A DNA stretch of 64,000 nucleotides from IMG/VR virus record IMGVR_UViG_3300012952_003943, positions 1 through 64,000 of that record. One strand, 5' to 3'. Source of the stretch: a virus (lineage: Duplodnaviria > Caudoviricetes). Numbering within the stretch: position 1 is the first letter of the stretch; each line of letters begins with the position of its first letter. The translations under genes and the position numbers were made by a program. Positions 47,658-64,000 of the stretch are shown here, piece after piece. The notes beneath the pieces are model-generated. The model was not told where the DNA came from. It was given only the letters and a program-made list of their open reading frames with translations, and searched no databases.

Positions 47658-48821
47658 TTAACCCTCGAAATATTTACCCAGCTTTTTTTCATACAATACG
47701 TTGATTGCATCCTGTGAATACTCTGCTGTTAGTGTTTTGCTTAAATCTTTTGCCCACTTTTGAGGGAGCTCTGGAGACTTTCGGAACTTTCTTAACCTAA
47801 ACTTCGCATGATTTTCATCAACTGCTGCCCACCTAGCACCCTTCATAAAAATTTGTCCATCTATACGGGACTCATGAACGTTCTCCATCCTATACTTTAC
47901 ACCTAAAAATCTACCTCTATTTAAGAAATCTAGGTGGCCTGACCACTCTGTAGCTATGACAGGCACACCGGCGACTGCAGCCTCCAGCAAGGGTAAACCA
48001 TATCCCTCGCCACGTGTAAACGACAGTAACGCTTTAATTTGTGGGTGAGAATACAGAGATGATATCTCAGCCTCTGTCATTGTACCGTGCAAAAAATGAA
48101 CCTTTGGATAGGGACCTGATCGCGTCTCTGATATTAGTTGCTTAAGCATTTTTTGAGTTACGTTGTGATCTATTGTAGTATTTCTACCTGAATTTGTCTT
48201 TAATACTATTCCGACATCCGGATCATCTTTAAACTCTTCACAGAGCCACTTGATGGTGTAGTACAGGTTTTTTCTATCATTTTCAGGATTATTTCCTGTG
48301 ATTTGACCAAAGACGAGAAAGTTAAATGGCGTTGAAAACTCTACATCAAAATCTTCTTTTTTAGGAGAAACGATGGAGTCATAGTATGACTCAGGAATAA
48401 CATGGATGCGGGTTTTTGTTTGTCCAGTATTCTCTATAGTCCTCTTGACAAATGTAGATGGAACGACAACTTCATCCATCTTATCACAACACTCTAGCCA
48501 CGCAGGATTACAAATGTCTGTCTCTACAAATGCCGAAATCCCAATATTCTTTTTGCCTACCGAAGGATCCCACTCGTTAGGTAATTGAACCTGTATCGAT
48601 ATGTCGCCACGTGCCTCCAGCGGACCTGATCGTTGCATGATTTCGCCTATCAGGCCGCCCTCCATTTCTGGATTAATCATCCAGCTTGTGATTCCCCACG
48701 GGACGATTTGTGTAATAACCTCTATATCATTATGGGTCATTAGCCACTTGAATACTTGGCGAGAATGGTTTCCGTAACCTGAATACGACAGCAGTGGGGC
48801 TCTTAGTATGACTTTTTTCAT
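47658..48821 (-). CDS. Glycosyltransferase, GT-B fold (GT4-like)
   Basis: N-terminal SGYG loop, RKN motif and signature TRGEGYGLPLLEAAVAGVPVIATEWSG. Confidence 0.9.
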   Translation of the reverse strand: MKKVILRAPLLSYSGYGNHSRQVFKWLMTHNDIEVITQIVPWGITSWMINPEMEGGLIGEIMQRSGPLEARGDISIQVQLPNEWDPSVGKKNIGISAFVETDICNPAWLECCDKMDEVVVPSTFVKRTIENTGQTKTRIHVIPESYYDSIVSPKKEDFDVEFSTPFNFLVFGQITGNNPENDRKNLYYTIKWLCEEFKDDPDVGIVLKTNSGRNTTIDHNVTQKMLKQLISETRSGPYPKVHFLHGTMTEAEISSLYSHPQIKALLSFTRGEGYGLPLLEAAVAGVPVIATEWSGHLDFLNRGRFLGVKYRMENVHESRIDGQIFMKGARWAAVDENHAKFRLRKFRKSPELPQKWAKDLSKTLTAEYSQDAINVLYEKKLGKYFEG

Positions 48822-48828
48822 TTTATTC

Positions 48829-50079
48829 CTACAGCGTTTTTAAAGACCAGCGGGCCCTCTTCTCTTGAAACTTATTGTACGTCGAAGTAAGTGTATCATG
48901 CCACATATCAATGACGTTATCGTAGTTAAACTCATAGTCAGCATATGCCTTTGCCTTCTGGCCTAACTCTCTCCTACCATCCGGTCCGGCTTCATACATT
49001 TTCATCCATGCACCTGCAATTGTCTCTACGCTGGTATAGTCCTCGTATATGTAAGGAACATTTTGAGAACCGACCAGTGTCCTTAGCTCGACAGGGAGCG
49101 CGACACCATTTTCTGTCCCATCTCTATGATCTACGACCTGGCGAGTTTGACCCCCTGTCTTTACGGCTACAATTGGCGTGCCGGTCATCATAGCCTCAAG
49201 CGTCGATAAACCGAAACCCTCTGCATAGCTTATGTTTGTCACAACATCTGCGATATTGTGCAAAATATTCATTTGCTCAAACTCTATGCGGTCTGTTGAA
49301 AAGACAACGTTAGGCACTATGTTGAGGTACTCTGCACATGCTAACAGGTTAGGGCCCTCTGTATCCTTGGGATCAGTATGCAATAAAAGTGTAGCATTCT
49401 TATGGCCATGGGTTTGTTCTAAATTGTCTAAAAACATCTTCCATGCCCACAGCACATCATTAGGACGCTTGCGCTTTGCGTTTCTGTTTACCCAAAAGAC
49501 AACAAAGTGATCTTTGCGATCCGGGCCAAGAACTTGAGGCTTCCAATTCTTTATTTCTTCTTGGGAAAGCTCATGATATATTCCTTTTGGAAATGCATGA
49601 GGAACAAAGTTGGATTTTTCCGGATGCTCTTCAGCACAGATTTCATAAGTCACATATGAATGACAATTTATAAGATCTGTAGCCTCATAAAGAACATCGT
49701 TAAAAGAAGGCCGAGGATTATTATCCCAAACATGCCACCATGCAATTGGGCACACCTGATGGATTTCATCTTCCATCTCAAAGAGCCAGATGAAAAACCT
49801 TGGATCTGTAAAAATTAGCAAGACATCAGGCTTTTCTGTCGCTAGTGTTAATCGTAAAAGATCTCTATTTCCAAACCCATCAATTGGCTTGATAATGAAG
49901 TCTTCGTTAACGATCTGTGTCTCATAACTAAGATGCTTAACAGCCGCACCGAACTGTCTAAAAGTCCACTCGCCAGGATACTTCTTTAAAAGTCCCTCGA
50001 TTAAAAACCTAGTTTGCACGCCGACGCCTGAAGTACTCAATGCGTGGTCTGATAGTACTAAAACTTTTTTCTTTTTCAT
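48829..50079 (-). CDS. Glycosyltransferase, GT-B fold (GT4-like)
   Basis: SGVGVQT loop, VNRNAKRKRP and signature AEGFGLSTLEAMMTGTPIV; ATG at 50079 preferred over the TTG at 50088. Confidence 0.9.
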   Translation of the reverse strand: MKKKKVLVLSDHALSTSGVGVQTRFLIEGLLKKYPGEWTFRQFGAAVKHLSYETQIVNEDFIIKPIDGFGNRDLLRLTLATEKPDVLLIFTDPRFFIWLFEMEDEIHQVCPIAWWHVWDNNPRPSFNDVLYEATDLINCHSYVTYEICAEEHPEKSNFVPHAFPKGIYHELSQEEIKNWKPQVLGPDRKDHFVVFWVNRNAKRKRPNDVLWAWKMFLDNLEQTHGHKNATLLLHTDPKDTEGPNLLACAEYLNIVPNVVFSTDRIEFEQMNILHNIADVVTNISYAEGFGLSTLEAMMTGTPIVAVKTGGQTRQVVDHRDGTENGVALPVELRTLVGSQNVPYIYEDYTSVETIAGAWMKMYEAGPDGRRELGQKAKAYADYEFNYDNVIDMWHDTLTSTYNKFQEKRARWSLKTL

Positions 50080-50103
50080 ATTCTGCAATTACCTTAGAAT
50101 CGA

Positions 50104-50133
50104 ACCTTAATAAACTAATACGATAAAGTGCAA
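50104..50133 (-). promoter_or_regulatory. Possible sigma70-like promoter upstream of the GT4 pair (TTGCAC-N18-TAAGGT)
   Basis: Lies in the largest intergenic gap (about 110 nt, AT-rich). Confidence 0.3.
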
Positions 50134-50195
50134 AAGTTAATTCTTGTGCACAATAGAACTATGCGTATTTAATTGTATCTAAGGGGTGTGCAGAG

Positions 50196-51062
50196 TTAAT
50201 CAGAGCTTACTGCGCGGCCCAGCATTTTTTCCCAGTCGCGATCTTCAGGCGCTCTAACTTCCATATTTTTTTGCCAGACGCCTGACAAAACCGGTGTGGG
50301 AATATTGCTAAGTGATGCTAAAACCATCATTGCATTTAGATCTTTTGGAAAACAATGCCCTCCAAACCCTAGGCTTCCGTCAGGCCCAGGAACTGAAAGG
50401 TGTGAGTTCCCGATTCGCTCATCATACAACGCATACTCAACTACCTTGTCAAAGTCTACGTCAATACTGTCGCATATTTGCTTCATTTCATTTGCAAAGC
50501 TAACCTTTGTGGCTAAAAAGCAGTTAATAAAATACTTGACAGTCTCTGCAACACTAGCCCCCGTCTTAACAATCGGTACCTTGGGGAATGCCTTACGATA
50601 CATCGTCTTTACCTTTGTCGATGCAGGTCGCGGGCCACCAATAATAATCCTGTTTTGATTCTTAAAGTCTTCAAAAGAGTTTGCTTCTGTCAAAAACTCA
50701 GGATTAAATACGACTGTAACGTTTGAATATCTATAATTCAACCGATCTGTTGTACCGGGCTCGATTGTTGACTTAACCACGGCAATAATCTTTCTATTGA
50801 CCCTTATGCACTCATCATTAATATCACTAACGGCTGTCTCAACAAGCCTTGTATCACACCTTCCCTCGCTATTCATCGGCGTAGGAAGGCATACGAATAA
50901 AATCTCTTCGGTCTTAGCGATAAGTTCAGGCAAGGAATTACATGATGAGCCCTTTGTTTTGTCGATGTCATAAGTCTCGACATTAAAATAGGGACTCATT
51001 CCCTCTCTAATTGCAGAGCCAACAAAGCCCTGACCAACAATCCCAATTGACTTTCCCATCAT
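50196..51062 (-). CDS. ugd: UDP-glucose/GDP-mannose dehydrogenase family protein, short form lacking the C-terminal domain
   Basis: GIVGQGFVG Rossmann motif, VCLPTP, VKSTIEPG, NPEFLTE, catalytic GFGGHCFPKD; only 288 aa. Confidence 0.85.
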   Translation of the reverse strand: MMGKSIGIVGQGFVGSAIREGMSPYFNVETYDIDKTKGSSCNSLPELIAKTEEILFVCLPTPMNSEGRCDTRLVETAVSDINDECIRVNRKIIAVVKSTIEPGTTDRLNYRYSNVTVVFNPEFLTEANSFEDFKNQNRIIIGGPRPASTKVKTMYRKAFPKVPIVKTGASVAETVKYFINCFLATKVSFANEMKQICDSIDVDFDKVVEYALYDERIGNSHLSVPGPDGSLGFGGHCFPKDLNAMMVLASLSNIPTPVLSGVWQKNMEVRAPEDRDWEKMLGRAVSSD

Positions 51063-51068
51063 ATCTCC

Positions 51069-51893
51069 TTATGTGCAGTGGGGTGTATCATAATAATCAC
51101 AAAATCTACATGCGTCTCTATTTTTCATAAACATTCCCCTCTTAACGGAAGAGATCATGTTTCCTACCATCTTATTTGCTTTTTCTAAAGCCTTAGGACC
51201 AGCTGATATCTTAATAAGATCACACATATTTCCTGGCTTTCCACCTCTTTTAAGCAAAATAAATCCACAACCTACATCCTTGAGAGGGATGTCATGCTTG
51301 TTTGCCCAGTACGATTTATACAGAATGATTTGCGCTTGAGTTAAAAAGTCTTGCTTTTTTCTCCTATCCCACCCGTATTGCTTTGCAGTTTTCCAGTCTA
51401 AAATCCAGTACTTGTACGTGCCATTTTTTCTAGGGACTTTAATGATAACATCGATAAATCCCTTAAACAACATATCTTTTCCGGGGACTTTCTCATACAG
51501 CTCTTCTTCCGCCTGTACAGGCTCCCACCCGGGAAACGTTTCATCCAAAAATTTTGGCACATCATTCCACATATTTGATGCCCACGTGCACCACTCTTCA
51601 ACAGGATAATACTTGTACCATCCGGGCTGTTGCTTTACCCACTCTGGGTCGTCAAACCCATGCTTTTCCCATGCCTCGCGAATATTATCCAATAGCCTAT
51701 CACGTGGAACGCTACCAGTGTTTAGAAAGCTTTCACATCCTTCATGCACATTTGTTCCAAAATCGAGATATGGAGATGGCTTAAACATATCGATCTTGTC
51801 TATGTGTTGTAGCTTATGCCTATATGGGCATTCTCTCCAGCACCTTACTTCCGAATATGAAACGTGCTTTTTGCCTGTTGGAAACTCACTCAT
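51069..51893 (-). CDS. PD-(D/E)XK exonuclease, Cas4/RecB-like with Fe-S cysteines
   Basis: SYSE...ECPYR N-terminus, GFIDVII...ILDWKT catalytic motif, Q...Y, C-terminal CRFC...C; ATG at 51893 overlaps the gmd stop. Confidence 0.88.
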
Positions 51894-52872
51894 TATTCCT
51901 TGCCTCGAGCTTGGCATCTTCTAGATCAGCATCATACATCATTTCAGCCAACTCCTTGAATGATACCTTTGGGCTCCACCCTAACTCTTTTTTTGCTTTA
52001 GATGAATCACCTAACAAGACTGGGACTTCATGAGGTCGCAGAAACCTCTTATCAAAACCAACATGCTCGTCGATGCTTAATCCTGCATAATCAAATACGT
52101 GCTGCAAAAACTCACGCACAGTGTGTGTTTCTCCAGTTGCAATAACATAATCATCTGGTTTATCTTGTTGCAGCATTAACCACATCGCTTCTACATAATC
52201 TCCAGCAAATCCCCAATCTCTCTTTGCATCTAAGTTCCCTAAGTAGAGCTTATCTTGTAGCCCCAACTTAATTCTGGCTGCAGCGCGAGTAATTTTTCTA
52301 GTAACAAAAGTCTCACCTCTACGAGGAGATTCGTGATTAAAAAGAATGCCACTTGAAGCATGAAGGCCGTATGATTTTCTATAGTTCCTAATAAGGTTGT
52401 GTGCAAACAGCTTTGCACATGCATAAGGTGAGGCAGGAGTCATCCTGGTTGACTCAGATTGGGGAACATTGGGGTTATCACCAAACATCTCTGAAGATGA
52501 TGCCTGATAAAACCTGGCATTCGGTACAATTTCTCTACATGCCTCAAGCATTCGCAGTGTACCCATTGCAACGACATCAGCTGTTTCTTCAGGTACATCA
52601 AATGATACCCTTACATGTGACTGTGCGGCAATGTTATATACTTCATCAGGCTTGTATTTTTGGAGCAATCTATACATGTTTCCTGAATCATGCATGCTGC
52701 CATACGCTAATTCAAAATTAGGGTTCGAGTATATATGGTCAATCCTGTCAGTACAAAGCAATGATGTCCGGCGCTTCACGCCTACGACATAATACCCCTT
52801 GGACAACAGTAGCTCTGCAAGGTAAGAGCCGTCCTGGCCTGTGATCCCTGTGATTAGCGCAACTCTAGACAT
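51886..52872 (-). CDS. gmd: GDP-mannose 4,6-dehydratase
   Basis: [73 protein letters not shown]. Confidence 0.97.
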
Positions 52873-53868
52873 TTAATCCTTCTTCCAGAAACTGTACAGC
52901 CCTTTCTCAATCTCATAGTCCATAGTGAGCACTTCACGATTTGGCTGTTCCATCGCCCAAGAAAACATATCTCTCATTGTATCTCGTAGATCGGTACCAT
53001 CTTCAAAACCTAAAAGCTCTTTTGCCTTTGTGTGATCACAGTACGCAGTATGAACTTCATTTCGTGCCTCAAGGTACTCAATCTCTGGCTCAAACCCAAA
53101 CTCTTTTGCAACATCAGCCAAAAGGTTTGCTGCTTCATTAATAGTAAAGTCCTTGTCGGCACCCAAATTAAACGTCTCTTGTGAGTGGCCATGCATTAGC
53201 TTTTCAAACGGCTCCATGTAGAACTTAATATCTGAAAATGCCCTGACTTGTGTGCCGTCACCAAAGATTGTCATTGGCTCATTATTGAGAATTTTTCTAA
53301 TCCAGATACCAATTACATTCCTGTATCGATCCCAAATATTTTGATAAATACCGACAACGTTGTGCGGGCGTACAATCGAATAGTCAAGCCCAAATTGATC
53401 ATGTGCCAACGCCAAGTCCATTTCAACTGCATACTTTGCAATGCCGTAAGGATCTTCTGGGCAAGGGGTTTGATCTTCTGTAAAGGGAGGATTTCCTTCG
53501 CCGTATACAGCCATCGATGAAGTAAAGATTACTTTCTTTACGTTAGAGTTAACGCATGCATTTACTACATTTGCTGAACACAGAACATTGTTCGTATAGT
53601 TGTAATTCCTGATAAACGGTGACAAGCCTTCGGCAGCATATGCAGCAAAGTGATAGACGTACTCAGGGCGATGGGACGAAAATATTTGCTCAACCGCTGA
53701 AGCATCAAGCAAGTTGACAGGATAAAATGTAACTCTTTTATCAACACTGTCTTGGAACCCACCTGAAAGATCGTCAATTCCTACAACATCATATCCATTA
53801 TCTACGAGGTATCTCGAAAAGTTTGCGCCAAGAAGGCCGGCGGCACCAGTAACTAAAACGGTTGGCAT
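52873..53868 (-). CDS. NAD-dependent nucleotide-sugar epimerase/dehydratase (extended SDR)
   Basis: VLVTGAAGLLG, TSSMAVYG, YGIAK (YxxxK), GDGTQVRAF. Confidence 0.9.
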   Translation of the reverse strand: MPTVLVTGAAGLLGANFSRYLVDNGYDVVGIDDLSGGFQDSVDKRVTFYPVNLLDASAVEQIFSSHRPEYVYHFAAYAAEGLSPFIRNYNYTNNVLCSANVVNACVNSNVKKVIFTSSMAVYGEGNPPFTEDQTPCPEDPYGIAKYAVEMDLALAHDQFGLDYSIVRPHNVVGIYQNIWDRYRNVIGIWIRKILNNEPMTIFGDGTQVRAFSDIKFYMEPFEKLMHGHSQETFNLGADKDFTINEAANLLADVAKEFGFEPEIEYLEARNEVHTAYCDHTKAKELLGFEDGTDLRDTMRDMFSWAMEQPNREVLTMDYEIEKGLYSFWKKD

Positions 53869-53880
53869 ATCATCTCCTAT

Positions 53881-54651
53881 CTATGAACCCTTATTGTTGA
53901 TCATATCAATCATTTGCTCAGAGTACAAATCATTTTTAGGCATAAAATCTAATATCCATGACCTGTCTTTTTCGTACTCAAGCTCAATTAAAAAATCACC
54001 CAAGTGTTTATCTACGCACACTGCAACACCCCAGTTAAAGTCATCTCTCCAAGTGCTACCACCGTTTGTAATGTGGTTACCATGAATTTGTGTCTCATTG
54101 TCCCACTCGTCAAAAGAATCAAAGGCGGATGCCCTTTTTGCATTTTTGTCCTTAGAGTATTTTTTGGCAATCATATTGAATAGGTTGGCATCCATCTTTA
54201 CCTCCTGAAACTGAGATACAAAATGAGATATACCTCCGACTAGCGTTGCTTCATTACCGTTAAAGTAATCCTCATACTTGATAAAACATATGGGAGCCCC
54301 CTGGTTTGCCTCCCACACATAGCAGCGATAATCAAGCTGCCTAGCATTTGGCCGATAGAATAGCCTATATGCAGCGACCCTGAGTAGCTCTCCAGACATC
54401 CCGGTAATGCTATTTATATCAGATAACTCACCCCTCTTCACCTCAGGTGCTAGAACAGTCCTTGCATATGAACATATGACATCTCGAGGATCACGATACG
54501 TATAAAGCTTAACACTGAGTGCATCTTGCGCATCATAGCTGTGGCTCTTTACAACATCACACCCTAGCTCTCTTAACACCTGCCAAACAAAGGTTGAACC
54601 TGATCTTTCCATTCCGCAGACCCGAAACTTTCCGTTCCAATCAAAACTCAT
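53881..54651 (-). CDS. PAPS-dependent sulfotransferase
   Basis: 5'-PSB motif GMERSGST and 3'-PB motif YRDPRDVICS, plus IKYEDY. Confidence 0.82.
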   Translation of the reverse strand: MSFDWNGKFRVCGMERSGSTFVWQVLRELGCDVVKSHSYDAQDALSVKLYTYRDPRDVICSYARTVLAPEVKRGELSDINSITGMSGELLRVAAYRLFYRPNARQLDYRCYVWEANQGAPICFIKYEDYFNGNEATLVGGISHFVSQFQEVKMDANLFNMIAKKYSKDKNAKRASAFDSFDEWDNETQIHGNHITNGGSTWRDDFNWGVAVCVDKHLGDFLIELEYEKDRSWILDFMPKNDLYSEQMIDMINNKGS

Positions 54652-55574
54652 TTAACACCTCTTAAGTTAGGATAATTTTTAACCGCCCAAGCGCATGTCT
54701 TTTTCAATGCAATATCCATTTCGGTATACTGTCCTTTCCAGCCTAAGTCAACTAATCGTTGATTACTTGAGGGTTTTCTATATTGCCCACTTGGCATACT
54801 CGAATCCCAATCAATTATACCATTAAACCCTACAAAATTACACACTTTTTTTGCTATATTTTTTATTGTAATTTCGCCAGTATTTCCAATGTTAATAGGA
54901 TGAATCCCGTCATATTCCCTCAAAAGAAACATGAGTATATCAGCTACGTCTTCCGCATATGTAAATTCCCTAAGAGGACTTCCATCGCCCCACAACTTTA
55001 TTGATGGGGCACCTGACCTCTTTGCCTCTATTGCTTTCCTTATTATTGCAGGAACAACATGACCGTTCTCTAAATCAAAGTTGTCATTTTCACCAAAAAG
55101 ATTATTGGGAACTGCTGTTACAAAATTACACCCGTACTGTTCCCTGTATGCACGGGACTGAACGTCTAACATTCTTTTTGCATATGCATATCCAAAATTA
55201 GACCGGTGCGGCTCACCATTATGAATCTGATCCTCAGTTAATGGATATGTCACGCTATCAGGGTATACACATGTACTCAACATAGAAACAACTTTTTCTA
55301 CCTTGTACATAAGGGCAGCGTCTAAAACGTTCGTGTTGATCTGTAGGTTTGTTCTGTAAAAGTCTCCGACATAATCGGTATTTCCTTTCACACCACCCAC
55401 CTTTGCTGCCAAGTGAATTATATGGGTTGGTTTATGATCTTGAAGCATCCGGATGCAATCAGAAAAGTCAGTTAGGTCGTAGCCACATGATCCTACCCTA
55501 ACAAGATTATCAGGCTCATACTTTCGAAATGCGCTGCCCACCATTCCGGTACCTCCTGTTACTAATATTTTCAT
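54648..55574 (-). CDS. fcl: GDP-L-fucose synthase
   Basis: VTGGTGMVG, HLAAKVGG, STCVYP, NFGYAYAKR, PNNLFG..DNF, GHVVPAII, WGDGSPLREF. Confidence 0.95.
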   Translation of the reverse strand: MKILVTGGTGMVGSAFRKYEPDNLVRVGSCGYDLTDFSDCIRMLQDHKPTHIIHLAAKVGGVKGNTDYVGDFYRTNLQINTNVLDAALMYKVEKVVSMLSTCVYPDSVTYPLTEDQIHNGEPHRSNFGYAYAKRMLDVQSRAYREQYGCNFVTAVPNNLFGENDNFDLENGHVVPAIIRKAIEAKRSGAPSIKLWGDGSPLREFTYAEDVADILMFLLREYDGIHPINIGNTGEITIKNIAKKVCNFVGFNGIIDWDSSMPSGQYRKPSSNQRLVDLGWKGQYTEMDIALKKTCAWAVKNYPNLRGVK

Positions 55575-55575
55575 T

Positions 55576-56741: not shown

Positions 56742-57393
56742 CTAACACCTCATATCTCAAAATAACTTTTTTATTGCCTAACAAAAAGAATGCAGGGTAC
56801 TCATCATTATCGCATATCCTGATTTCATCCCATAAATCTATTAAGGGTGTTGTAGGATCTAGCTCACAACTGCTTAGACTTCTACGCTTATGGTATGAGC
56901 CGGCACCAGTTTGATCTCTTAAGACTATGTACCCTTGCTCTAACTCGTCTAAGAATAACTGAAAGCTTTGTGATATACCGTTTTCTCTCTTTTTATTTAG
57001 GGTGTCCAAAGTATCATGCTTCAGTATTGGAACATTGACTTGGTTTATGATCTCCCCAGAATCCACTCCGCCATCTAACTTATACAGCGTTATTGTCAGG
57101 TTTTTTCTGTTATTGAGAACTGACCACTGAATCGGTGCCCAACCTTTACCTTCCGGAAGAGGTGTTTCATGAGTGCCGATTACTCCATACAGCGGCTTTG
57201 CTAGCACGCTTTCAGGAATAATATGGTATACCCCGCTTTCAAAAACTAGATCATACGTCTCATCAATATCATCTGAAGTAATATGCTGAAACTTAATACC
57301 ACGGGCTTTTAGAATTTTTGCAAAGCATGCAGAACGTGATCCCACCAGCCCTATCTTAAGATCACTTACATTTTTATCAAGCTTTACTATCAT
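56725..57393 (-). CDS. N10-formyl-THF-dependent formyltransferase (sugar N-formyltransferase-like)
   Basis: GTHETPLPEGKGWAPIQW and TLYKLDGGVDSGEII match the Formyl_trans_N H-xx-xLP-xxRG and DxG motifs. Confidence 0.82.
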   Translation of the reverse strand: MIVKLDKNVSDLKIGLVGSRSACFAKILKARGIKFQHITSDDIDETYDLVFESGVYHIIPESVLAKPLYGVIGTHETPLPEGKGWAPIQWSVLNNRKNLTITLYKLDGGVDSGEIINQVNVPILKHDTLDTLNKKRENGISQSFQLFLDELEQGYIVLRDQTGAGSYHKRRSLSSCELDPTTPLIDLWDEIRICDNDEYPAFFLLGNKKVILRYEVLDEVTT

Positions 57394-57394
57394 A

Positions 57395-58207
57395 TTAATC
57401 CTCCCAAACGTCTATCAAATCAATTAGGTCATCATGATGATCATCAAACCAATAAGACTTTAGGCATCCTCTATTAACTTTCCACCCATCTAATCCTGGA
57501 ATAAATGGGTTGAGGGAAGAGCCGACATCCATGTATGTATTTTCAGGCTCATTCTCAAAACATCGATGTATAGCACACTCAGATAATGAGCCGGCCGTAA
57601 ATAAAAACAGGTGATCTTTGATTTTGTTTTCGCGTATCCATGCAGGAATTTCTTCAACTAGATTAAAGTCATTACGAATGCAGTCAGGCCCAACACGAAA
57701 GTCTTTTACTACATCAAATGGAAGTTTGGATATATCACCGTTTCTAGGGCCTACGTACACAACACGTTTGCCAGAAAATAGGGGCACAATTTCTTCAATG
57801 AACTTAGAATAGTTTCCGTTAATTAACAGGTTCGCAAATGTTAGGTGCTCAGGATCATTTCCGTAAAGTGACATTTGATTTTCAAAAGTGCATGCATCGT
57901 TTCTAGCCTTAAGGCTTTCTTTGTTCGATAGGCCTTTAAAATAATTTTTTGCCTTATATTGAAACGAGCCTATGACGGCTTCTCTTTGGTGCTGGTGCAT
58001 ATCTGGAATAAAATATTTTTCTTCCTCAATCCCATGCTTTTGGAACTGAATTCCATGATCACCTATTTCATAATAGTCAGGTGCTATTACAATCTTGACA
58101 CCAAACATCACCATAAGCTCCCCATCAGAAAATCTAGTATAAGCAAAGTTCTCATTGTTCTCTAGCAAAGATTTAATCTTTTCTAAGTCTTTTACCATTG
58201 TTTTCAT
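57395..58207 (-). CDS. GT-D fold glycosyltransferase (DUF1792-like)
   Basis: N-terminal FAYTRFSDGE (family RF/YGDGE motif) and C-terminal MDVGSSL (DxG motif). Confidence 0.7.
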   Translation of the reverse strand: MKTMVKDLEKIKSLLENNENFAYTRFSDGELMVMFGVKIVIAPDYYEIGDHGIQFQKHGIEEEKYFIPDMHQHQREAVIGSFQYKAKNYFKGLSNKESLKARNDACTFENQMSLYGNDPEHLTFANLLINGNYSKFIEEIVPLFSGKRVVYVGPRNGDISKLPFDVVKDFRVGPDCIRNDFNLVEEIPAWIRENKIKDHLFLFTAGSLSECAIHRCFENEPENTYMDVGSSLNPFIPGLDGWKVNRGCLKSYWFDDHHDDLIDLIDVWED

Positions 58208-58470
58208 GATAACTTCCTAGCATTTTCAGAGACTATTTGGAGCTCATATAATAGCTCAGAAGATTTAAGCTCTGTCTCTATCTCATTGTCAGGAACATTT
58301 TTAAGCAATGTTACCCTTGCAACATGCATATTCATTCTGACACACAGGCCGTCATAATCTGATAGCTTATATGTTTTAAACTCGTGTGACATTTGTAAGA
58401 GCCTGGTGAAATAAGGAATATTGGAGATTTTTTCCTGGATTTGATTAACAAGGACATCAAGTGGCATCAT
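58204..58470 (-). CDS. Hypothetical protein (88 aa)
   Basis: Fills the gap between wecB and the GT-D gene, overlapping the GT-D start (ATGA); no recognisable motif. Confidence 0.5.
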   Translation of the reverse strand: MMPLDVLVNQIQEKISNIPYFTRLLQMSHEFKTYKLSDYDGLCVRMNMHVARVTLLKNVPDNEIETELKSSELLYELQIVSENARKLS

Positions 58471-58473
58471 TTT

Positions 58474-59460
58474 TTAAAGCTCCTTTAAGTATTTGACGAT
58501 ATGATCTGCAGCGCGGCCATCACCATACGGACAATTTGAACCAACAATAAAGTCATCGCGGACTGAGTTGAATATATCTTTTAGCATTTCTGGTTGAGGA
58601 CACAAAAAGCTAGATGTGCCTATGGACTCTGTCCTCTCTGTTACAGAGCGGCATACTATTACCTTCTTTTTTAGAAAAGAGCATTCCTCTTGAAGGCCGC
58701 CGCTATCAGAAATTACAACCCTACAATTTGCCAGCATATCCAAAAACTCAGAGTGCTGAAGCGGGCTAATAACATTAACACCCTTAAGTAGTGCCCTGTG
58801 CTTTTTCACATTAGGATTAGGGTGGATTGGTAATATGAACTGAAGGTCAGGATTTTCAAGAGCTAGCTGAGATATGCACTTGAACCAGCGATCCATCATA
58901 TGATGATTTTCTCTTCTATGCAAGGTTATTATGACATCATTATTATATGACGTCGTGATGTCAGTTAAGTTATCCAAGACAGTATTTCCGACAACCACTG
59001 TTTTGCCTAACGCTCCCTCATCCTTTAATACTTGCTGATTCTCTTGGGTTGCACATAAATGAATATCTGCAATTCGAGATATGCACTGCCTATACACCTC
59101 TTCTGGGTATGGGTTATCTTTATCCCAGGTTCTTAGCCCTGCCTCGAGATGAATGACCTTAATCCTGCGATGGAAAGAGGCTAGTGCTAGAGAAAATGCA
59201 GATGCCGTATCACCTTGTACTAGGGTATGTGTAACCCCATCAAATACTTCATCTGGCAAGTTAAGTTGAGATGCTACAATGCTGTCAAGGCGGTGGCTTC
59301 CATTCTGGATCGGAACTTTAAAATCGTGCGGAAACTTGCATAAGTCTTCATGTTGGCCGGTAAACAATACTCGGTACTCGATTTCACCCTTAATCTTTTC
59401 AATAACAGGGCTGATCTTGATATACTCTGGACGTGTACCATATGATAGCAATATTTTCAT
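58474..59460 (-). CDS. wecB: UDP-N-acetylglucosamine 2-epimerase (non-hydrolysing)
   Basis: GTRPEYIK, TGQH, VQGDT, HLEAGLRT...PYPEE (non-hydrolysing type), TLHRREN, SDSGGLQEE. Confidence 0.95.
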   Translation of the reverse strand: MKILLSYGTRPEYIKISPVIEKIKGEIEYRVLFTGQHEDLCKFPHDFKVPIQNGSHRLDSIVASQLNLPDEVFDGVTHTLVQGDTASAFSLALASFHRRIKVIHLEAGLRTWDKDNPYPEEVYRQCISRIADIHLCATQENQQVLKDEGALGKTVVVGNTVLDNLTDITTSYNNDVIITLHRRENHHMMDRWFKCISQLALENPDLQFILPIHPNPNVKKHRALLKGVNVISPLQHSEFLDMLANCRVVISDSGGLQEECSFLKKKVIVCRSVTERTESIGTSSFLCPQPEMLKDIFNSVRDDFIVGSNCPYGDGRAADHIVKYLKEL

Positions 59461-60260
59461 TAAATCTCCTCGGTGGTTGCATGCTTATGGTACCACTTTG
59501 GATACGGCAAGTTATTTGCTACCTTAAAACTTTGGGAAAACTCAGGGGCCCAGCTTGGACATAGCTGCCCGTCAGCATGGCGGCGGGGTGGCATATAAAC
59601 AGGGGTGCTGCTTTCAAGGCATAGCTTTAAAATACTTACACCGACTTGGCTATCGATATGCTTTGCAACACGAGTCTTCCAACGCGTATTTTTTCTCAAG
59701 CTAAAATCCCCATTCATGCAAGACATAAGCGCGCAGACTGTAACATCATCAGCTGTCTCAGTAAAGTGCTTCATATCCGAAGCTACATCGTATCGAAAAT
59801 ACTTGACACACATTATATCACCTGAGTCTATTTTTTCATCAAGGCAAAAAATTGAAACGCCCCACTCTCCATTCCCTAGCATTCTACCCCACACTAACGA
59901 TGCCCCACCTTGTACACCGGGCAGAGGTGCACCATGGTTTCCTACCACTTCATACCTTTGAACTATATTAGCAGGAACTATTCTAGAATCGCCTAATGTT
60001 AGTACTAAATCTATGTCTCTATCTTCACATTCCTCTTTGAACAAAGACCACTCATTACTACAATCCAGGAATATGTTATATTTTGAGCATACATGCTCCA
60101 AAGAAACTGCATTAACCTTATTTTCAAAGAGATCTGTGGGCAGGCCAAAGACATACCTAACGTCAAAACCACCTTCTATCAAAGCAACAATAGACTTAAG
60201 CGTAAGCCTTGTGTTCCCGATAACCGCTATTCTCCTATTTCTAAAATCTTTCTTGCCCAT
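59460..60260 (-). CDS. Second formyltransferase-family protein
   Basis: VVGNHGAPLPGVQGGASLVW and SIFCLDEKIDSGDI motifs. Confidence 0.78.
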   Translation of the reverse strand: MGKKDFRNRRIAVIGNTRLTLKSIVALIEGGFDVRYVFGLPTDLFENKVNAVSLEHVCSKYNIFLDCSNEWSLFKEECEDRDIDLVLTLGDSRIVPANIVQRYEVVGNHGAPLPGVQGGASLVWGRMLGNGEWGVSIFCLDEKIDSGDIMCVKYFRYDVASDMKHFTETADDVTVCALMSCMNGDFSLRKNTRWKTRVAKHIDSQVGVSILKLCLESSTPVYMPPRRHADGQLCPSWAPEFSQSFKVANNLPYPKWYHKHATTEEI

Positions 60261-60784
60261 CTTTTCGCAATCTCTTTATATCCCTCATGTGTAAAGTGCA
60301 CTCCATCTATGAGGTGTTCTTCCATATCATCCATTGAACAAATGCCAAACTGTAGCTCTTTTGACAACTTTTTAATAACCTTGTTGTACTGGAAAATGTA
60401 ATCGTGGTTGTGCAAGTAAAAGGGGGAAAACCCTAATGTCGGGAGTGTCGCTACAATGACTGTCATACCAAAAACTTTTGCAGACTGAATTATTTGCCGC
60501 AAGTTATCTTCATATATACCAAGAGGCGTAGGCTTCTTTGTGTCATTAGTACCAATCATGAGGAGCATTATCTTGCAGTCTGAATTCGACTTTATTATCC
60601 CCCAACTTCTACGCAATAAGTCTGAGCTGGTTTCACCGTTAATTCCATAGTTGTGACATATATAAAACTCACCTAACTTTGAAGACAGGATCTTACCTAA
60701 CTCAGCAGGATATGATCTTCCATACTCATCCCTTGCTCCGTAAGTTAATGAGTCACCTAAACATAATACTTGATTCCAAATCAT
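60227..60784 (-). CDS. SGNH/GDSL hydrolase
   Basis: All four blocks present: GDSLTYG, GINGETS, GTND, DGVH. Confidence 0.92.
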   Translation of the reverse strand: MIWNQVLCLGDSLTYGARDEYGRSYPAELGKILSSKLGEFYICHNYGINGETSSDLLRRSWGIIKSNSDCKIMLLMIGTNDTKKPTPLGIYEDNLRQIIQSAKVFGMTVIVATLPTLGFSPFYLHNHDYIFQYNKVIKKLSKELQFGICSMDDMEEHLIDGVHFTHEGYKEIAKRWARKILEIGE

Positions 60785-61591
60785 TTATTTCCACTCCGTT
60801 TGAATGGGAAGCTTTTCTCCCGCTTTGTATGCGTCATGATTGACTATCTTATATCCGTTTGCAACACACTGACGTAAGTACTCTGCCATACGTGGAATTG
60901 CAAAGTTTGCAGTTGCCTGTGCGTCTCCACCGTACTCTGCTGCGGTGTCCGGAAGGCTTCCCCATATTTGCTGATTGTCTTTTGGGTGAGGTGCAACGTA
61001 TGTATTAATTCCTGCATACTTTTGTAACGTATACGTAAAATGAATATCTTCACCGGCGCATTTGAACTTATCTAAATCAGGGGATTCTCTCCAAAAATAG
61101 TTTAAAAGCTCTTTTTCAAAAAACCAAGAATGCCCCACTAGATCAACCTTCACAGGGTAGTCATTTGGTATATCCCATCCGGCCCTTTGATCACAATTAC
61201 CATACACACTATCATCTGCGCCATAACCCTTTTCACTACCGAACAGTACCCCGATTGCTCCGTATAGCGCTCGCTCGTTATCGTTACACTGAATACAGTT
61301 CTCAAACCACTGAGGGCCTGGGATTGTATCATCATCAAAGATACAAACGTACTTTGTTTTTGCCATTAGCGCAGCGGCAAAGCGATACCACACACCAAAG
61401 TTGTGATTGCTGATAACACTAATGCAATTATTTGCCACTCCAATATCAAGCCATGGGTGCGGATCATAACAGTTTTGTATTAACCAGACCTCTTCCGGCT
61501 TGATGCTTTGATTCATAACAGCCTCATACTGCTGCCGAAGTGTGTGGGGCCGACCATATGCCTGCAATATTGCAGTTACTCCATCTTTCAT
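60785..61591 (-). CDS. Glycosyltransferase, GT-A fold (GT2-like)
   Basis: TAILQAYGRP start, YVCIFDDDTIPG DxD motif, GEDIHF. Confidence 0.85.
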   Translation of the reverse strand: MKDGVTAILQAYGRPHTLRQQYEAVMNQSIKPEEVWLIQNCYDPHPWLDIGVANNCISVISNHNFGVWYRFAAALMAKTKYVCIFDDDTIPGPQWFENCIQCNDNERALYGAIGVLFGSEKGYGADDSVYGNCDQRAGWDIPNDYPVKVDLVGHSWFFEKELLNYFWRESPDLDKFKCAGEDIHFTYTLQKYAGINTYVAPHPKDNQQIWGSLPDTAAEYGGDAQATANFAIPRMAEYLRQCVANGYKIVNHDAYKAGEKLPIQTEWK

Positions 61592-62538
61592 TATGTTGTC
61601 TCCATTAAACTTTCAACTGTTTGCTGCAGTGCCTCGTCAAAATTTGTAGGCTCTGATATTCCTATCCTTGAAACTTTTTCATTAGATATCGAATATCTAA
61701 AGTCATGACCTGGCCTATCATCAACAAACGTAATTGCATCAGTAGGATCAACACCCATGATTTTGCATATTTTTGTAATGACCTCCAGGTTTTCCATTTC
61801 ATTACAATGAGTTAAATTGTAAGTTTGATTTTCTTTGCCATTGAGCAACACATCATAGACCATCTTTACACAATCCTTGACATAAAACCAGTCCCTAACA
61901 TTTTTTCCGTCTCCGTATACAGGAATGCCTGTTGAGTTTTGTATGCATCTTACAACGGTAGGGATTAACTTCTCTGTGTGCTGACGAGGCCCGAAGTTAT
62001 TGCTCATGCGCACCATCTTATATGTGGTGCCGTATGTGTTGTGATAGGATGTCACAAAGTGTTCTGCAGCTGCCTTGCTAGCAGAGTAAGGATTTTTAGG
62101 ATTTAAGGAATCAGTTTCACTGAATGAGCCTTTTGTAGTCGAGCCGTATACCTCGTCAGTAGAGATATGCAGTAACTTTGTTCCTGTATTTTTACATGCT
62201 TCGAGAAGTGAAACGACACCTTGGATATTTGACTGAATAAAGGGCTTAGCATTCTTGATCGAATTGTCAACATGCGACTCCGCGGCAAAGTTTATTATCC
62301 ACTCGACACTTCTCATTTCGCATATCTCTGATATAAACTGTGTGTCACATATATCTCTATGCCACAACCTAAAATTTGGAAGATTGTATGCGTGCTTTAT
62401 ATTTGTAGACTTACCAGCATAGGTAAAGCTGTCTATTCCACAAACGTCATGACCATTTTCAATCAGCAAATCCGACATATGGCTTCCGATAAAGCCGGCG
62501 CAGCCTGTAACTAATACATTCATTTTCTCTTTACTCAT
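61591..62538 (-). CDS. rmlB: dTDP-glucose 4,6-dehydratase
   Basis: VTGCAGFIGS, TYAG, NFAAESHVDNSI, HISTDEVYGS, NPYSASKA, NNFGPRQHTEKLIP, DRPGHDFRYSI. Confidence 0.96.
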   Translation of the reverse strand: MSKEKMNVLVTGCAGFIGSHMSDLLIENGHDVCGIDSFTYAGKSTNIKHAYNLPNFRLWHRDICDTQFISEICEMRSVEWIINFAAESHVDNSIKNAKPFIQSNIQGVVSLLEACKNTGTKLLHISTDEVYGSTTKGSFSETDSLNPKNPYSASKAAAEHFVTSYHNTYGTTYKMVRMSNNFGPRQHTEKLIPTVVRCIQNSTGIPVYGDGKNVRDWFYVKDCVKMVYDVLLNGKENQTYNLTHCNEMENLEVITKICKIMGVDPTDAITFVDDRPGHDFRYSISNEKVSRIGISEPTNFDEALQQTVESLMETT

Positions 62539-63346
62539 AATTTTCCAAGCACCACGTTAAAGCATCGCTAGCCGATCTAGGGCTAAAGCCTGTGGATTTA
62601 AGTTTCTCTACTGACAAAACGGCATTCACCCTTTTTTCAGGTATCATGTCTAGCATTTCGTCATATGTAATTTGCACTACATTCATCCTTGGCCGAAGGT
62701 GTTTTTTTACCATTTGTGCGATTTCAAATGGAGACACTACGCCGGCGTTAACACAATTATAAACACCTCTAGCATCAATTTTCAACAAATGTTCTATCAT
62801 TAATGAAAAATCCTCAGTGCACGTTATGGAGTTTGATTCTTTGTGGCAATATAAAGTCTCATGAGAAAGAAACTTTGTTATCATGTTTGTAGAGTGTTCT
62901 TTAGAGCTTATCATTTGCCGCGGCCGCAAAATTAGATAATTTTCATATCCATAAGACTGAATATAGCTATCTGCCCAGTCCTTTGTCTTCGTATACCACA
63001 CTGCAGGTGATGTGTGATCCGACTCAAGTACAGGCGCCTCGCTTCCGTCAAATACACACCCGGTGCTAATATGAACAAGCTTACACCCGTATGCCTGGCA
63101 TGCTCTTAATATGTTGATCGGCCCAACAGTGTTGACAAGGTATGACTCATCGCGGTTTTTACTACACCACTCTAAATTTGTCTTTGCTGCACAGTTAATA
63201 ACCGTACCGGTGAACCCCTTAAGCGTATCCATGACATCTGCTAACACCGTTATATCACATTTCTTGTGTGGGACAACAATGTCCCCCGGCTTTCTTATCG
63301 TCTTTGAAACCTTGCCATCACCAATAATGATCCTACTTTCACTCAT
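62531..63346 (-). CDS. rmlD: dTDP-4-dehydrorhamnose reductase-like
   Basis: VINCAAKTNLEWC, VNTVGP, HISTGCVFDG, YTKTK (YxxxK); degenerate Rossmann start IIIGDGKV. Confidence 0.8.
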   Translation of the reverse strand: MSESRIIIGDGKVSKTIRKPGDIVVPHKKCDITVLADVMDTLKGFTGTVINCAAKTNLEWCSKNRDESYLVNTVGPINILRACQAYGCKLVHISTGCVFDGSEAPVLESDHTSPAVWYTKTKDWADSYIQSYGYENYLILRPRQMISSKEHSTNMITKFLSHETLYCHKESNSITCTEDFSLMIEHLLKIDARGVYNCVNAGVVSPFEIAQMVKKHLRPRMNVVQITYDEMLDMIPEKRVNAVLSVEKLKSTGFSPRSASDALTWCLENYE

Positions 63347-64000
63347 CCGCTTCCATACCGACTAACATATTGGCGGCCCTATATGATTTATGGGTACCTG
63401 CGTCTGTCCACCATCCTGATAGGACATCAAACCCGACTGCACCCTCTTTAACATAAGAGTTATTTAGCTCAGTTATCTCATACTCTCCTCTAGATGAAGG
63501 CTTAAGCTTTTCAATTCTAGAAAATGCCGATCCGTCGTAAATGTATATGCCGGTCACACACATGCTTGATACGTACTCTTTAGGTTTTTCGATGATCTCA
63601 GATATGCTGTCACCATCAATAACAGCAACACCATATCTCTCAGGATCAGATACTTCTTTTAAAAGTAGAAAGCACTTCTTTCCGGAAGCATTATATTTTT
63701 TAACGACACCTGATAAATCATCCTGGAATATATTGTCACCTAAAAGCACCATAAAATTTTCGTTGCCTACAAAGTTACTAGCCAGCCTTAGAGCATCTGC
63801 AATTCCTGCTGCTGACTCCTGAACCTTAAATGTAAATGAACAACCGTACTTTTCACCGCTTCCTAATAAACTGATCATATCACCCATGTGCTCAGTTCCA
63901 GTTATAACTAAAATTTCAGTTATCCCTACGTCTACCAGTTTTGTGACAAGGTGTAATATCATGGGCTTCTTGCCTACCGGCAACAAATGCTTATTAGTGA
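63339..64000 (-). CDS. rmlA: Glucose-1-phosphate thymidylyltransferase, short form, partial (start lies beyond the window)
   Basis: Frame stays open to the window end (..TNKHLLPVGKKPMI); QESAAGIADAL, LLGDNIF, ERYGVA, EKPK, RGEYEIT, WTDAGT. Confidence 0.93.
   Translation of the reverse strand, partial: TNKHLLPVGKKPMILHLVTKLVDVGITEILVITGTEHMGDMISLLGSGEKYGCSFTFKVQESAAGIADALRLASNFVGNENFMVLLGDNIFQDDLSGVVKKYNASGKKCFLLLKEVSDPERYGVAVIDGDSISEIIEKPKEYVSSMCVTGIYIYDGSAFSRIEKLKPSSRGEYEITELNNSYVKEGAVGFDVLSGWWTDAGTHKSYRAANMLVGMEADE

Follow-up and report, generated by a model that had tools for sequence, protein, structure and literature searches.

What does a tailed phage build, and on what, with a 28.2 kb block of sugar-metabolism genes that encodes no transmembrane protein? 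The question is raised by IMG/VR virus record IMGVR_UViG_3300012952_003943 (Duplodnaviria; Caudoviricetes), a single 77,002-bp virus contig of which bases 1-64000 make up the stretch analysed here, hereafter the window (64,000 nucleotides). A preliminary description of the window had proposed a self-contained, membrane-free glycan biosynthesis island next to the baseplate genes, decorating the virion in the manner of giant viruses. We find that the island combines a strongly conserved pair of family 4 glycosyltransferase (GT) genes with a cassette of sugar genes that changes from phage to phage, and that the pair co-occurs with enrichment of a Ser/Thr-Gly-Ser motif ([S/T]GS) in tail and baseplate proteins. 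Cytoplasmic glycosylation of the phage's own tail and baseplate proteins is the best explanation of these observations, which we hold tentatively and at somewhat below even chances; the earlier interpretation is partly supported.

A soluble sugar block

The block occupies 47658-75897 on the minus strand, comprises 34 genes and runs on past the end of the window at 64000. All 34 open reading frames (ORFs) are intact with overlapping starts and stops; the 32 genes between 75897 and 50196 abut or overlap, a gap of 212 bp lies ahead of the block and one of 107 bp (50089-50195, minus strand) separates the block from the GT pair. The sugar genes named in the preliminary description were confirmed gene by gene at their positions using Pfam and NCBIfam, all of them on the minus strand, apart from 51069-51917, one of 20 ORFs, which encodes a PD-(D/E)XK nuclease. 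It had also suggested following the contig beyond 64000 in search of membrane partners: sugar genes continue there to 75897 and no membrane protein is among them.

No transmembrane segment was detected by Kyte-Doolittle scan in any of the 34 island proteins. Searches for the Bac_transf, WecA/MraY-type and Wzx families came back negative for the contig, for four partial IMG/VR relatives and for three complete ones, namely the Flavobacterium phage vB_FspM_immuto (immuto, 160 kb), the Microcystis phage Mel-JY01 (190 kb) and the uncultured phage LR756508 (484 kb); control genomes scored positive. Wzy_C was present in none of five records tested, and no polytopic ORF was seen in the upstream 10 kb of 14 relatives (more than 100 cassette ORFs) nor in 49 kb of LR756508, ABC2-type permeases being covered by hydropathy only and not by family search. 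The membrane-free character described earlier is borne out by the hydropathy scan and the initiating transferase, flippase and polymerase searches, and extends to the relatives.

A conserved glycosyltransferase pair beside a variable cassette

Nine GTs are recognisable in the island, two of family GT4, four of GT2, one each of GT6 and GT11, and a GT-D-like candidate. The GT4 pair stands at the 3′ end of the block on the minus strand, GT#2 (48829-50088, 419 aa, Pfam 2.8e-12) followed by the downstream member GT#1 (47658-48821, 387 aa, Pfam Glycos_transf_1 3.9e-8). Both keep the GT4 E-x7-E motif and both predicted models are GT-B folds (predicted local distance difference test, pLDDT, 91 for GT#1 and 87 for GT#2). 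GT#2 is the most conserved gene of the neighbourhood (71% mean column identity, invariant E290...E298) and exceeds in identity across relatives both the sigma-like (41-54%) and the baseplate wedge (36-51%) proteins. It retrieved 14 IMG/VR loci at 47-65% identity, most of them at 61-65%. The closest relative, P0002, has a GT#2 at 82%, and the family extends to more than 3800 metagenome clusters (3813), including Tara Oceans samples and contigs of up to 322 kb. GT#1 was found in 13 IMG/VR relatives at 33-52% identity as well as in immuto and Mel-JY01; its similarity to actinophage GTs is marginal (26-27% over 60% of GT#1). The pair is kept in phages of Flavobacterium and of Microcystis, and its retention across hosts with differing envelopes argues for an acceptor intrinsic to the phage. 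The GT#2 homologue of Mel-JY01 (PP395634.1 83441-84932) is split into an N-domain frame of 198 aa and a C-domain frame of 313 aa, both annotated as glycosyltransferases, which could reflect a split GT-B enzyme, a frameshift or a sequencing error.

In both sequence-profile and Foldseek comparisons, chlorovirus NY-2A B736L is the best-matching solved structure for GT#1 and for GT#2. The match of GT#1 (2.7e-16) is three orders of magnitude ahead of the next; for SdgB and GtfA, O-GlcNAc transferases acting on protein serine, its score is about 1e-11 and the TM-score only about 0.5. Four GTs of three folds had been described in the window, of which three are supported by Pfam, the third being a GT2 enzyme (GT-A) at 60785-61591 (minus strand, Glycos_transf_2 2.3e-6). 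The fourth is probably the 270-aa product of 57395-58207 (minus strand), which has no Pfam match itself and is GT-D-like only through its homologues and ESM Atlas structure matches. Thirteen of its 23 homologues match PF22882 (best 2.3e-7), it resembles Atlas clusters carrying GT-D or GT-D-like (feature scores 0.94-0.95, TM 0.74-0.77) and the motif RFSDGE (D-x-E) is invariant among the homologues; PDB sequence search gave no solved-structure match and tblastn against phage records gave no match. The GT-D fold has been characterised biochemically for protein O-glycan extension.

Loci reaching far enough share one order: PD-(D/E)XK nuclease, GT#2, GT#1, an anchored protein of ~105 aa, the sigma-like protein, a 121-aa protein, a ~550-aa protein, a 160-aa protein and the baseplate wedge. 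Gene content on the upstream side of the nuclease varied among the 8 relatives compared. A Pfam tally over 88 ORFs of eight loci gave 14 short-chain dehydrogenases/reductases (SDRs), 6 CMP-sugar synthetase-type, 2 NeuB, 5 Ugd-like, 4 DegT and 4 GT2 proteins, 4 sulfotransferases and 3 dehydroquinate-synthase-like proteins. One relative (L004) carries a compact version of the island with the 642-aa protein, GT2, GT6, Fcl and Gmd. Turnover of the cassette beside a fixed pair is what would be expected of an exposed antigen, and in this clade-specific variability the island is like the giant viruses with which it was compared earlier. The placement next to baseplate genes holds for the marine jumbo lineage and not for the cultured phages: immuto and Mel-JY01 also have the nuclease and the GT pair adjacent, with smaller sugar cassettes downstream. 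As further observations on these loci, some relatives (among L004-L015) have NeuB and CMP-sugar synthetase (nonulosonic acid synthesis) and dehydroquinate-synthase-like genes in place of the fucose or rhamnose sets, and two carry SET-domain proteins within 10 kb upstream of the nuclease. The order in LR756508.1 (302642-306749) is ThyA (Asn-type), a Cas4-like PD-(D/E)XK protein with a C-terminal Cys cluster, a 152-aa ORF and GT#2; a 261-aa protein with a sulfotransferase PAPS loop (3′-phosphoadenosine 5′-phosphosulfate) stands in the place of GT#1, and Fcl and Gmd follow 14 kb further on.

Motif enrichment in tail and baseplate proteins

The [S/T]GS motif occurs 50 times in seven structural proteins of the contig against about 9 copies expected from composition, and several sites in a 534-aa baseplate protein are positionally conserved in homologues 39-44% identical. 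The island enzymes are not enriched, three island ORFs having one copy each. Whole-genome observed/expected ratios are 2.6 in both immuto and Mel-JY01, where the pair is present, with 7 and 9 significantly enriched ORFs respectively. Five of the seven in immuto fall in the tail-fibre/tail-spike cluster gp101-gp106 (two annotated tail spikes and three hypothetical proteins) and another, gp056, neighbours a structural gene. The T4-like phages Sf-CH8, S-WAM1 and P-SSM2, with no match to the GT#2 family, have ratios of 1.3-1.5 and 0, 0 and 2 enriched ORFs. Over three phages with the GT pair and three without, the pair goes together with about fivefold [S/T]GS enrichment in tail and baseplate proteins. 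A tblastn search with the 1228-aa motif-rich protein gave no match in phage records. Two P-SSM2 (NC_006883.2) ORFs are themselves rich in the motif, a 597-aa ORF at 18953-20746 (15 [S/T]GS against 3.8 expected, despite the lack of the GT pair) and one at 223225-226509 (9 against 3.1), and the motif is therefore not exclusive to pair-bearing phages.

A possible cytoplasmic assembly line

We infer the sugars actually made, the order in which the enzymes act and the acceptor from this gene content. The island would be a phage-owned, all-cytoplasmic assembly line fed from host central metabolites. Its donors would be dTDP-L-rhamnose (RmlABCD), GDP-L-fucose (Gmd, Fcl), UDP-ManNAc (WecB), an NDP-heptose made by a GmhA-like isomerase, an HddA-like kinase and a small HAD phosphatase, and a formamido-dideoxy sugar made by RmlB, the short DegT protein and the formyltransferases. 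The term self-contained, used in the preliminary description, overstates the case: the host must supply GDP-mannose, UDP-GlcNAc, PAPS and formyl-tetrahydrofolate, and no nucleotidyltransferase dedicated to the heptose branch is encoded. The GT4 pair would place the first sugar or sugars on an acceptor made by the phage, most probably the Ser/Thr of [S/T]-G-S sites in distal tail and baseplate proteins. The strain-variable upstream cassette would extend and decorate this primer, nine soluble GTs joining the donors into a hetero-oligosaccharide trimmed with methyl, sulfate and acyl groups. The outcome would be a variable glycan coat on the apparatus of host recognition.

A number of points weigh against glycosylation of the tail. 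Glycan and acceptor alike are predictions from the genes, and the contig represents about 16% of its genome. The association of motif and GT pair comes from a comparison of 3 phages with 3 in which shared ancestry is a confounder, the pair-bearing phages being each other's closest relatives. The residues around [S/T]GS, hydrophobic at -1 and +3, would suit a structural turn in a repeated beta fold as well. The B736L match of GT#2 is near-tied with the generic GT4 enzymes MshA, sucrose-phosphate synthase (SPS) and BshA, and the structure matches assign no function. A conserved single-pass membrane protein follows the GT pair, and the neighbours of the pair in immuto and Mel-JY01 are genes of replication, nucleotide metabolism or lysis instead of structural genes. 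O-antigen synthesis on host undecaprenyl carriers, furthermore, also relies as a rule on soluble GT2 and GT4 enzymes. A more specific reading is possible, if somewhat doubtful: an abundant lineage of marine jumbo phages, whose cultured relatives infect Flavobacterium and Microcystis, would use the conserved GT4 pair to prime Ser/Thr-Gly-Ser sites of its tail and baseplate proteins and would build strain-specific glycans there from its own donors, with much fucose, rhamnose and heptose and with formyl, methyl and sulfate groups added.

Host surface and DNA as alternative acceptors

The phage donors and peripheral transferases might instead work on host undecaprenyl-linked intermediates and so change the lipopolysaccharide (LPS) or capsule, blocking superinfection or keeping progeny off debris, while the host's initiating transferase, its flippase or ABC exporter and its ligase supply the membrane steps. 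This is the standard literature reading of the "LPS" genes of cyanophages and pelagimyophages (PMC7029224, PMC12801897, PMC3037559). The gene families are those of O-antigen clusters, and the nearest phage homologues of the GT6, GT11, Gmd and heptose genes lie in the "LPS clusters" of cyanomyoviruses P-SSM2, S-SSM7, S-SM2 and SynMITS9220M01. The conserved small membrane protein beside the GT pair would also fit. Absence of membrane genes from the island is not decisive against such a target, because O-antigen transferases are normally soluble or peripheral and act on the host lipid carrier. A new repeat unit, however, normally requires a matching flippase, polymerase and ligase, and no flippase or initiator was found in the contig or in the three complete relatives, nor a polymerase in the records searched for one. 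That the GT pair is strongly conserved in phages whose hosts have unrelated envelopes also runs counter to host-surface remodelling, as does RmlB, which is too distant from that of named bacteria (about 56% identity) for a recent capture of host serotype genes. Remodelling has never been demonstrated for any such phage cluster, whose function is called unknown in PMC3037559, and we consider it unlikely here.

Glycosylation of hydroxylated pyrimidines in the phage DNA by the GT4 pair, perhaps with part of the cassette, in evasion of restriction seems improbable. Models for it are the glucosylated hydroxymethylcytosine of T-even phages, the poly-arabinosyl-5-hydroxycytosine of RB69 and DLP3 and operons of methyltransferase, dioxygenase and GT genes. 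The idea has gained weight from recent work on RB69 and DLP3, which employ two or three GT4-like GT-B enzymes whose structural neighbours (BshA, MshA, sucrose-phosphate synthase) are those of the GT pair here, alongside an SIS isomerase, a kinase, a small HAD phosphatase and a nucleotidyltransferase (PMC13326640). The HAD phosphatase of the island is homologous to that of T4-like phage SIS-HAD pairs, and tandem GTs, or a GT with an epimerase, are known DNA-glycan layouts acting on 5-hydroxymethylcytosine (bioRxiv 10.1101/2023.12.21.572611). The pair always follows the PD-(D/E)XK nuclease and in cultured relatives adjoins replication and nucleotide genes; in LR756508 a ThyA-family gene lies 2 kb upstream of the GT#2 homologue. 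The family, of dUMP type, occurs in LR756508 and once in immuto, but is absent from the complete Mel-JY01 genome and from three partial relatives (G001-G003). We rejected the ThyA homologue of LR756508 as a cytosine-modifying enzyme on account of its retained uracil-specifying Asn; its score, too, is that of a true thymidylate synthase. The Tet_JBP family search was without match, its control being silent as well, and no hydroxylated-base enzyme was seen among the annotated ORFs of the 77-kb contig (16% complete), at which no ThyA or Tet/JBP search was aimed. The SIS and kinase genes of the island are moreover of heptose type and not of RB69 type; the SIS/kinase/HAD set was rejected as an RB69-type arabinose pathway, having only the HAD family in common with it. 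Nine to ten transferases of five families, with methyl-, sulfo- and formyltransferases, far exceed the known mono- to trisaccharide DNA glycans.

A different acceptor or none (a non-virion protein of phage or host, a soluble small molecule, a free cytoplasmic polymer released at lysis or, for much of the cassette, drifting "stuffer" DNA, the last raised by Sullivan et al. for cyanophage clusters, PMC3037559) would accommodate the several island ORFs without a recognisable family and the short Ugd-like and DegT-like forms, which could be inactive, but is very improbable given the 34 intact, tightly packed ORFs with overlapping starts and stops, the catalytic motifs kept even in the short forms and the conservation of homologues across divergent phages.

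Relation to known glycosylation systems

Large sugar clusters of marine myoviruses have long been described (PMC3037559, PMC7029224, PMC12801897), and by gene content the island belongs among those of the marine T4-like phages (PMC3037559). The preliminary description overstated the novelty for phages, "LPS clusters" having been known in cyanomyoviruses since 2005. Like the island, the marine clusters (Prochlorococcus phage P-SSM2; Synechococcus phages S-SSM7, S-SM2 and S-SCSM2R; the host-recognition cluster of pelagimyophages) belong to aquatic myoviruses with a T4-like structural core. They comprise 15-24 genes or more for nucleotide-sugar epimerases/dehydratases and glycosyltransferases; GT6, GT11, Gmd and the heptose isomerase, kinase and phosphatase are common to the island and the cyanophage clusters. 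The 15-gene P-SSM2 cluster likewise has no annotated membrane gene, and pelagimyophage sugar genes sit among tail-fibre genes (PMC7029224). The island is larger than these clusters (34 genes, 28 kb), with fuller donor pathways and in addition formyl and sulfate chemistry and the GT-D-like enzyme. It consists of a conserved GT4 pair plus a variable cassette, whereas P-SSM2, Sf-CH8 and S-WAM1 are without the pair, and its lineage differs from that of cyanomyoviruses, to which its large terminase (TerL) is only about 30% identical. New here are the size and chemical breadth of the block, the layout of conserved pair and variable cassette in an abundant jumbo lineage, the lack of membrane steps in whole genomes of relatives and the link to a tail-protein motif.

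The chlorovirus capsid N-glycans and Megavirinae fibril glycans, whose gene clusters are clade-specific, offer one precedent for virion glycosylation (PMC4691112, PMC9614988, PMC10117803). These giant viruses likewise have Gmd/Fcl-type and rare-sugar pathways, soluble transferases without a membrane pathway and a clade-dependent gene content; the island differs in its bacterial host and tailed virion, and nothing beyond the generic GT4 fold, at 16-17% identity, points to common descent. A second precedent is the modification of mycobacteriophage virions by phage glycosyltransferases (Freeman et al. 2023, PMC10527164, as cited in PMC12619734). The mycobacteriophages would follow the logic proposed here, with soluble phage transferases linked to structural genes and a cytoplasmic glycan shield on the particle. 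These phages carry one or two transferases, are not known to have a donor-synthesis island and would draw on host donors. The island, a candidate for such glycosylation, brings at least five donor pathways and at least nine transferases.

The GtfA/GtfB system for cytoplasmic O-glycosylation of streptococcal serine-rich-repeat adhesins likewise combines two adjacent GT4-type genes with variable accessory transferases and short Ser-rich motifs in the presumed acceptor; its accessory enzymes include the GT-D enzyme dGT1, to which the GT-D-like protein of the island is a candidate counterpart. GtfB is a non-catalytic partner, whereas both phage GTs keep E-x7-E, and the accessory Sec system is lacking here. 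The island resembles giant-virus and adhesin glycosylation in working principle; with the adhesin system the likeness is not one of membership. RB69 and DLP3 (PMC13326640) share with it the T4-like background, GT4-like GT-B enzymes, a donor logic of isomerase, kinase, phosphatase and nucleotidyltransferase, and a homologous HAD protein; the island differs from them in its SIS/kinase type, in having far more transferases and modifying enzymes, and in that no ThyA-homologue hydroxylase, dCTPase or nucleotide kinase was seen near it. It differs from Wzx/Wzy or ABC O-antigen and capsule loci in that no initiating phosphoglycosyl transferase, flippase or polymerase was matched.

Sugar clusters have been seen in ocean phages since 2005, occupying tens of kilobases in some of the most abundant marine viruses, and no function has ever been tested. 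The present case sharpens the question, as the machinery is soluble genome-wide in three complete relatives and the pair behaves as a core gene and tracks a tail-protein motif. Immuto and Mel-JY01, which are cultured and carry the pair with small cassettes, make this long-standing question directly testable. If virion proteins were indeed the acceptor, glycan coats on the organelles of receptor binding would matter for host range and particle stability as well as for grazing and marine carbon chemistry, the phages would provide a bacterial-virus counterpart to the autonomous glycosylation of giant viruses, and the "LPS clusters" of ocean phages could be reinterpreted as virion-coat factories and not as modifiers of the host surface.

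Sugar-donor and modifying genes within the window

Identities of the minus-strand genes described below were taken from Pfam and NCBIfam; Gmd and WecB passed their equivalog cut-offs, other members being clear but below them. Nearest to the GT pair is a short Ugd-like NDP-sugar dehydrogenase of 288 aa (50196-51062, Pfam UDPG_MGDP_dh_N and central domain), which reaches 189.5 bits against a cut-off of 189.8 for TIGR03026 over profile positions 75-295 of 413. It is without the C-terminal nucleotide-sugar-binding domain but keeps GxGxxG and the catalytic-Cys motif GGHCFPKD, and short forms of 277-288 aa are present in five of eight relatives. The PD-(D/E)XK exonuclease (51069-51917, Pfam PDDEXK_1 3.3e-21, PHROG exonuclease families) is not a sugar gene and adjoins the GT pair in all relatives (15 loci).

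The fucose genes are gmd for GDP-mannose 4,6-dehydratase (51886-52872, TIGR01472 470.7 bits, cut-off 415), 71-73% identical in four relatives (L004, L005, L008, L014), and a gene for an Fcl-like GDP-L-fucose synthase (54648-55574, NF047922 4.9e-75, 252.8 bits, under the cut-off of 500), 49-58% identical in relatives. Between them lie a GalE-like SDR nucleotide-sugar epimerase/dehydratase (52873-53868, Pfam Epimerase 1.4e-49, under all equivalog cut-offs) and a putative 256-aa sulfotransferase (53881-54651). The sulfotransferase assignment made earlier is favoured by the PAPS-loop motif ERSGST, but the Pfam matches are weak (Sulfotransfer_1 0.016, Sulfotransfer_3 0.033); Sulfotransfer_2 occurs in 4 cassette ORFs of relatives.

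The rhamnose set consists of RmlC, dTDP-4-dehydrorhamnose 3,5-epimerase (55576-56109, Pfam dTDP_sugar_isom 1.9e-54), RmlB, dTDP-glucose 4,6-dehydratase (61591-62538, TIGR01181 9e-103, 343.7 bits, cut-off 365), an RmlD-like dTDP-4-dehydrorhamnose reductase (62531-63346, Pfam RmlD_sub_bind 8.6e-30; TIGR01214 106.7 bits, under cut-off) and an RmlA-like sugar-1-phosphate nucleotidyltransferase of 240 aa (63339-64061, cut by the window at 64000, Pfam NTP_transferase 4.5e-55; rmlA_long 230 bits, under cut-off). RmlB is 65-97% identical to unnamed metagenome proteins, the 65% match sharing one 288-kb contig with a GT#2 homologue, and its first named bacterial match is at about 56%; the genes are therefore judged to have resided in phages for long.

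Two formyltransferases are encoded, a sugar N-formyltransferase type (56725-57393, Pfam Formyl_trans_N 2.1e-12) matching ArnA and dTDP-4-amino-4,6-dideoxyglucose formyltransferase, and a second at 59460-60260 (Formyl_trans_N 5.2e-7). The short DegT-family aminotransferase (56109-56741, 210 aa, Pfam DegT 2.5e-21 in two stretches) keeps the pyridoxal phosphate (PLP)-lysine motif SFHIKK and is 41% identical to the equally short gp172 of immuto. The ugd and DegT genes named in the preliminary description stand as regards their catalytic Cys and PLP-Lys motifs; both are short forms (288 and 210 aa), of lengths that recur in relatives. WecB, a non-hydrolysing UDP-GlcNAc 2-epimerase, is encoded at 58474-59460 (TIGR00236 213.7 bits, cut-off 210.15), and an SGNH/GDSL hydrolase-fold protein at 60227-60784 (Pfam Lipase_GDSL_2 8.9e-23) is a candidate glycan O-acyl esterase or transferase, its N-terminus being the catalytic GDSL strand and not a signal peptide. 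An 88-aa ORF (58204-58470) has no family match.

Island genes beyond base 64000

Continuing on the minus strand past the window are a 286-aa ORF that is weakly GT4-like (64058-64918), an FkbM methyltransferase (64919-65557), a GT2 enzyme (65557-66387), the small HAD phosphatase of 105 aa (66354-66671), the GmhA-like SIS isomerase (66668-67186), the HddA-like GHMP kinase (67206-68150), GT6 (68147-68857), an ORF without a recognised family (68854-69672), another GT2 (69669-70397), a GT11 fucosyltransferase (70390-71262), an SDR (71234-72295), two ORFs without a recognised family (72295-73101 and 73098-73979) and a 642-aa protein with a GT2 domain (73969-75897), which heads the operon and whose family is virus-specific in the ESM Atlas. 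PHROGs, PDB sequence search and comparison with the GT-D-like profile yielded no identity for 64058-64918, 68854-69672, 72295-73101, 73098-73979 and 76110-76937, nor for the N- and C-terminal parts of the 642-aa protein.

Relatives of several of these genes are widespread in phages. GT6 is found in 72 phage records, mostly cyanomyoviruses including P-SSM2 (35% identity), and Gmd in 263, at 58-59% identity to cyanophages. For the SIS and kinase genes the only matches are heptose-type genes, found in cyanophage SynMITS9220M01 and Caulobacter phage Cr30; identity to SynMITS9220M01 is 44-51% for the heptose kinase, SIS and HAD genes. The HAD phosphatase family occurs in 390 phage records, largely T4-like phages of enterobacteria and Acinetobacter with SIS-HAD pairing, and the island protein is 42-47% identical to those of many T4-like coliphages and other enterobacterial phages paired with an SIS isomerase. 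The same family is also present in the cyanophages S-SM2, S-SSM7 and Bellamy, and this small enzyme seems common to DNA-arabinosylation clusters and "LPS" clusters.

Lineage and neighbouring genes

From its terminase, portal and baseplate wedge matches, TerL identities and completeness, the contig is judged to be a fragment of a very large T4-related aquatic phage. Every sizeable ORF is on the minus strand, including those for portal (1866-3899), TerL (3972-5573) and the baseplate wedge protein (41613-43457), all assigned by PHROGs. TerL identity is 42-43% with Mel-JY01 and immuto, 40% with LR756508 and about 30% with cyanomyoviruses. Deposited phages gave no megablast match to 40000-64000. 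CheckV estimates the completeness of the 77-kb contig at about 16%, from which a genome size of about 480 kb follows. Completeness ratings for related contigs of 108-134 kb are 15-46%, and contigs carrying GT#2 homologues measure 250-322 kb.

In all marine relatives (13 relatives, 33-58% identity) GT#1 is immediately followed by an N-terminally anchored protein of 109 aa with one transmembrane helix (47323-47652, minus strand, Kyte-Doolittle maximum 2.66 at residue 1), the sole membrane-anchored protein near the island. The sigma-factor-like protein that follows (46602-47339, minus strand, weak Pfam Sigma70_r2, E 0.0094) leads into the baseplate genes and is kept in 13 relatives at 41-54% identity. 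Two small, very acidic proteins of low hydrophobicity lie between the sigma-like gene and the baseplate genes (44023-44436 and 46221-46589); the 122-aa protein is 50-70% identical in all relatives, above most of its neighbours, and the 137-aa protein has no homologue in any locus examined.

Control regions

A conserved box, GTTTACTTTT, also written (G/A)TTTACTTT(T), is located about 45-60 nt before the start of GT#2 in the window and in seven relatives compared over 90 nt upstream (L006, L007, L009-L012, L015). The box is followed by an A/T-rich -10-like element and is unlike the ATATTTA[AC] box before structural genes. The GT pair may be served by a separate class of promoter; scans for generic sigma-70 promoters and for terminators at the GT pair and the operon head were not above chance. 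The late-type ATATTTA[AC] box has 5 sites on the coding strand of the contig, 3 of them in intergenic gaps upstream of structural genes, and is not found in the two intergenic gaps of the island, an absence that carries little weight with so few sites. The 212-bp gap at the head of the block (75898-76109) resembles the terminator of the upstream 275-aa gene together with a start region, although the generic scan made no call; it contains an AT-rich hairpin (ATCATGTA...TACATGAT) followed by nine T, and short TTAGAAT/ATTAGA-type repeats.

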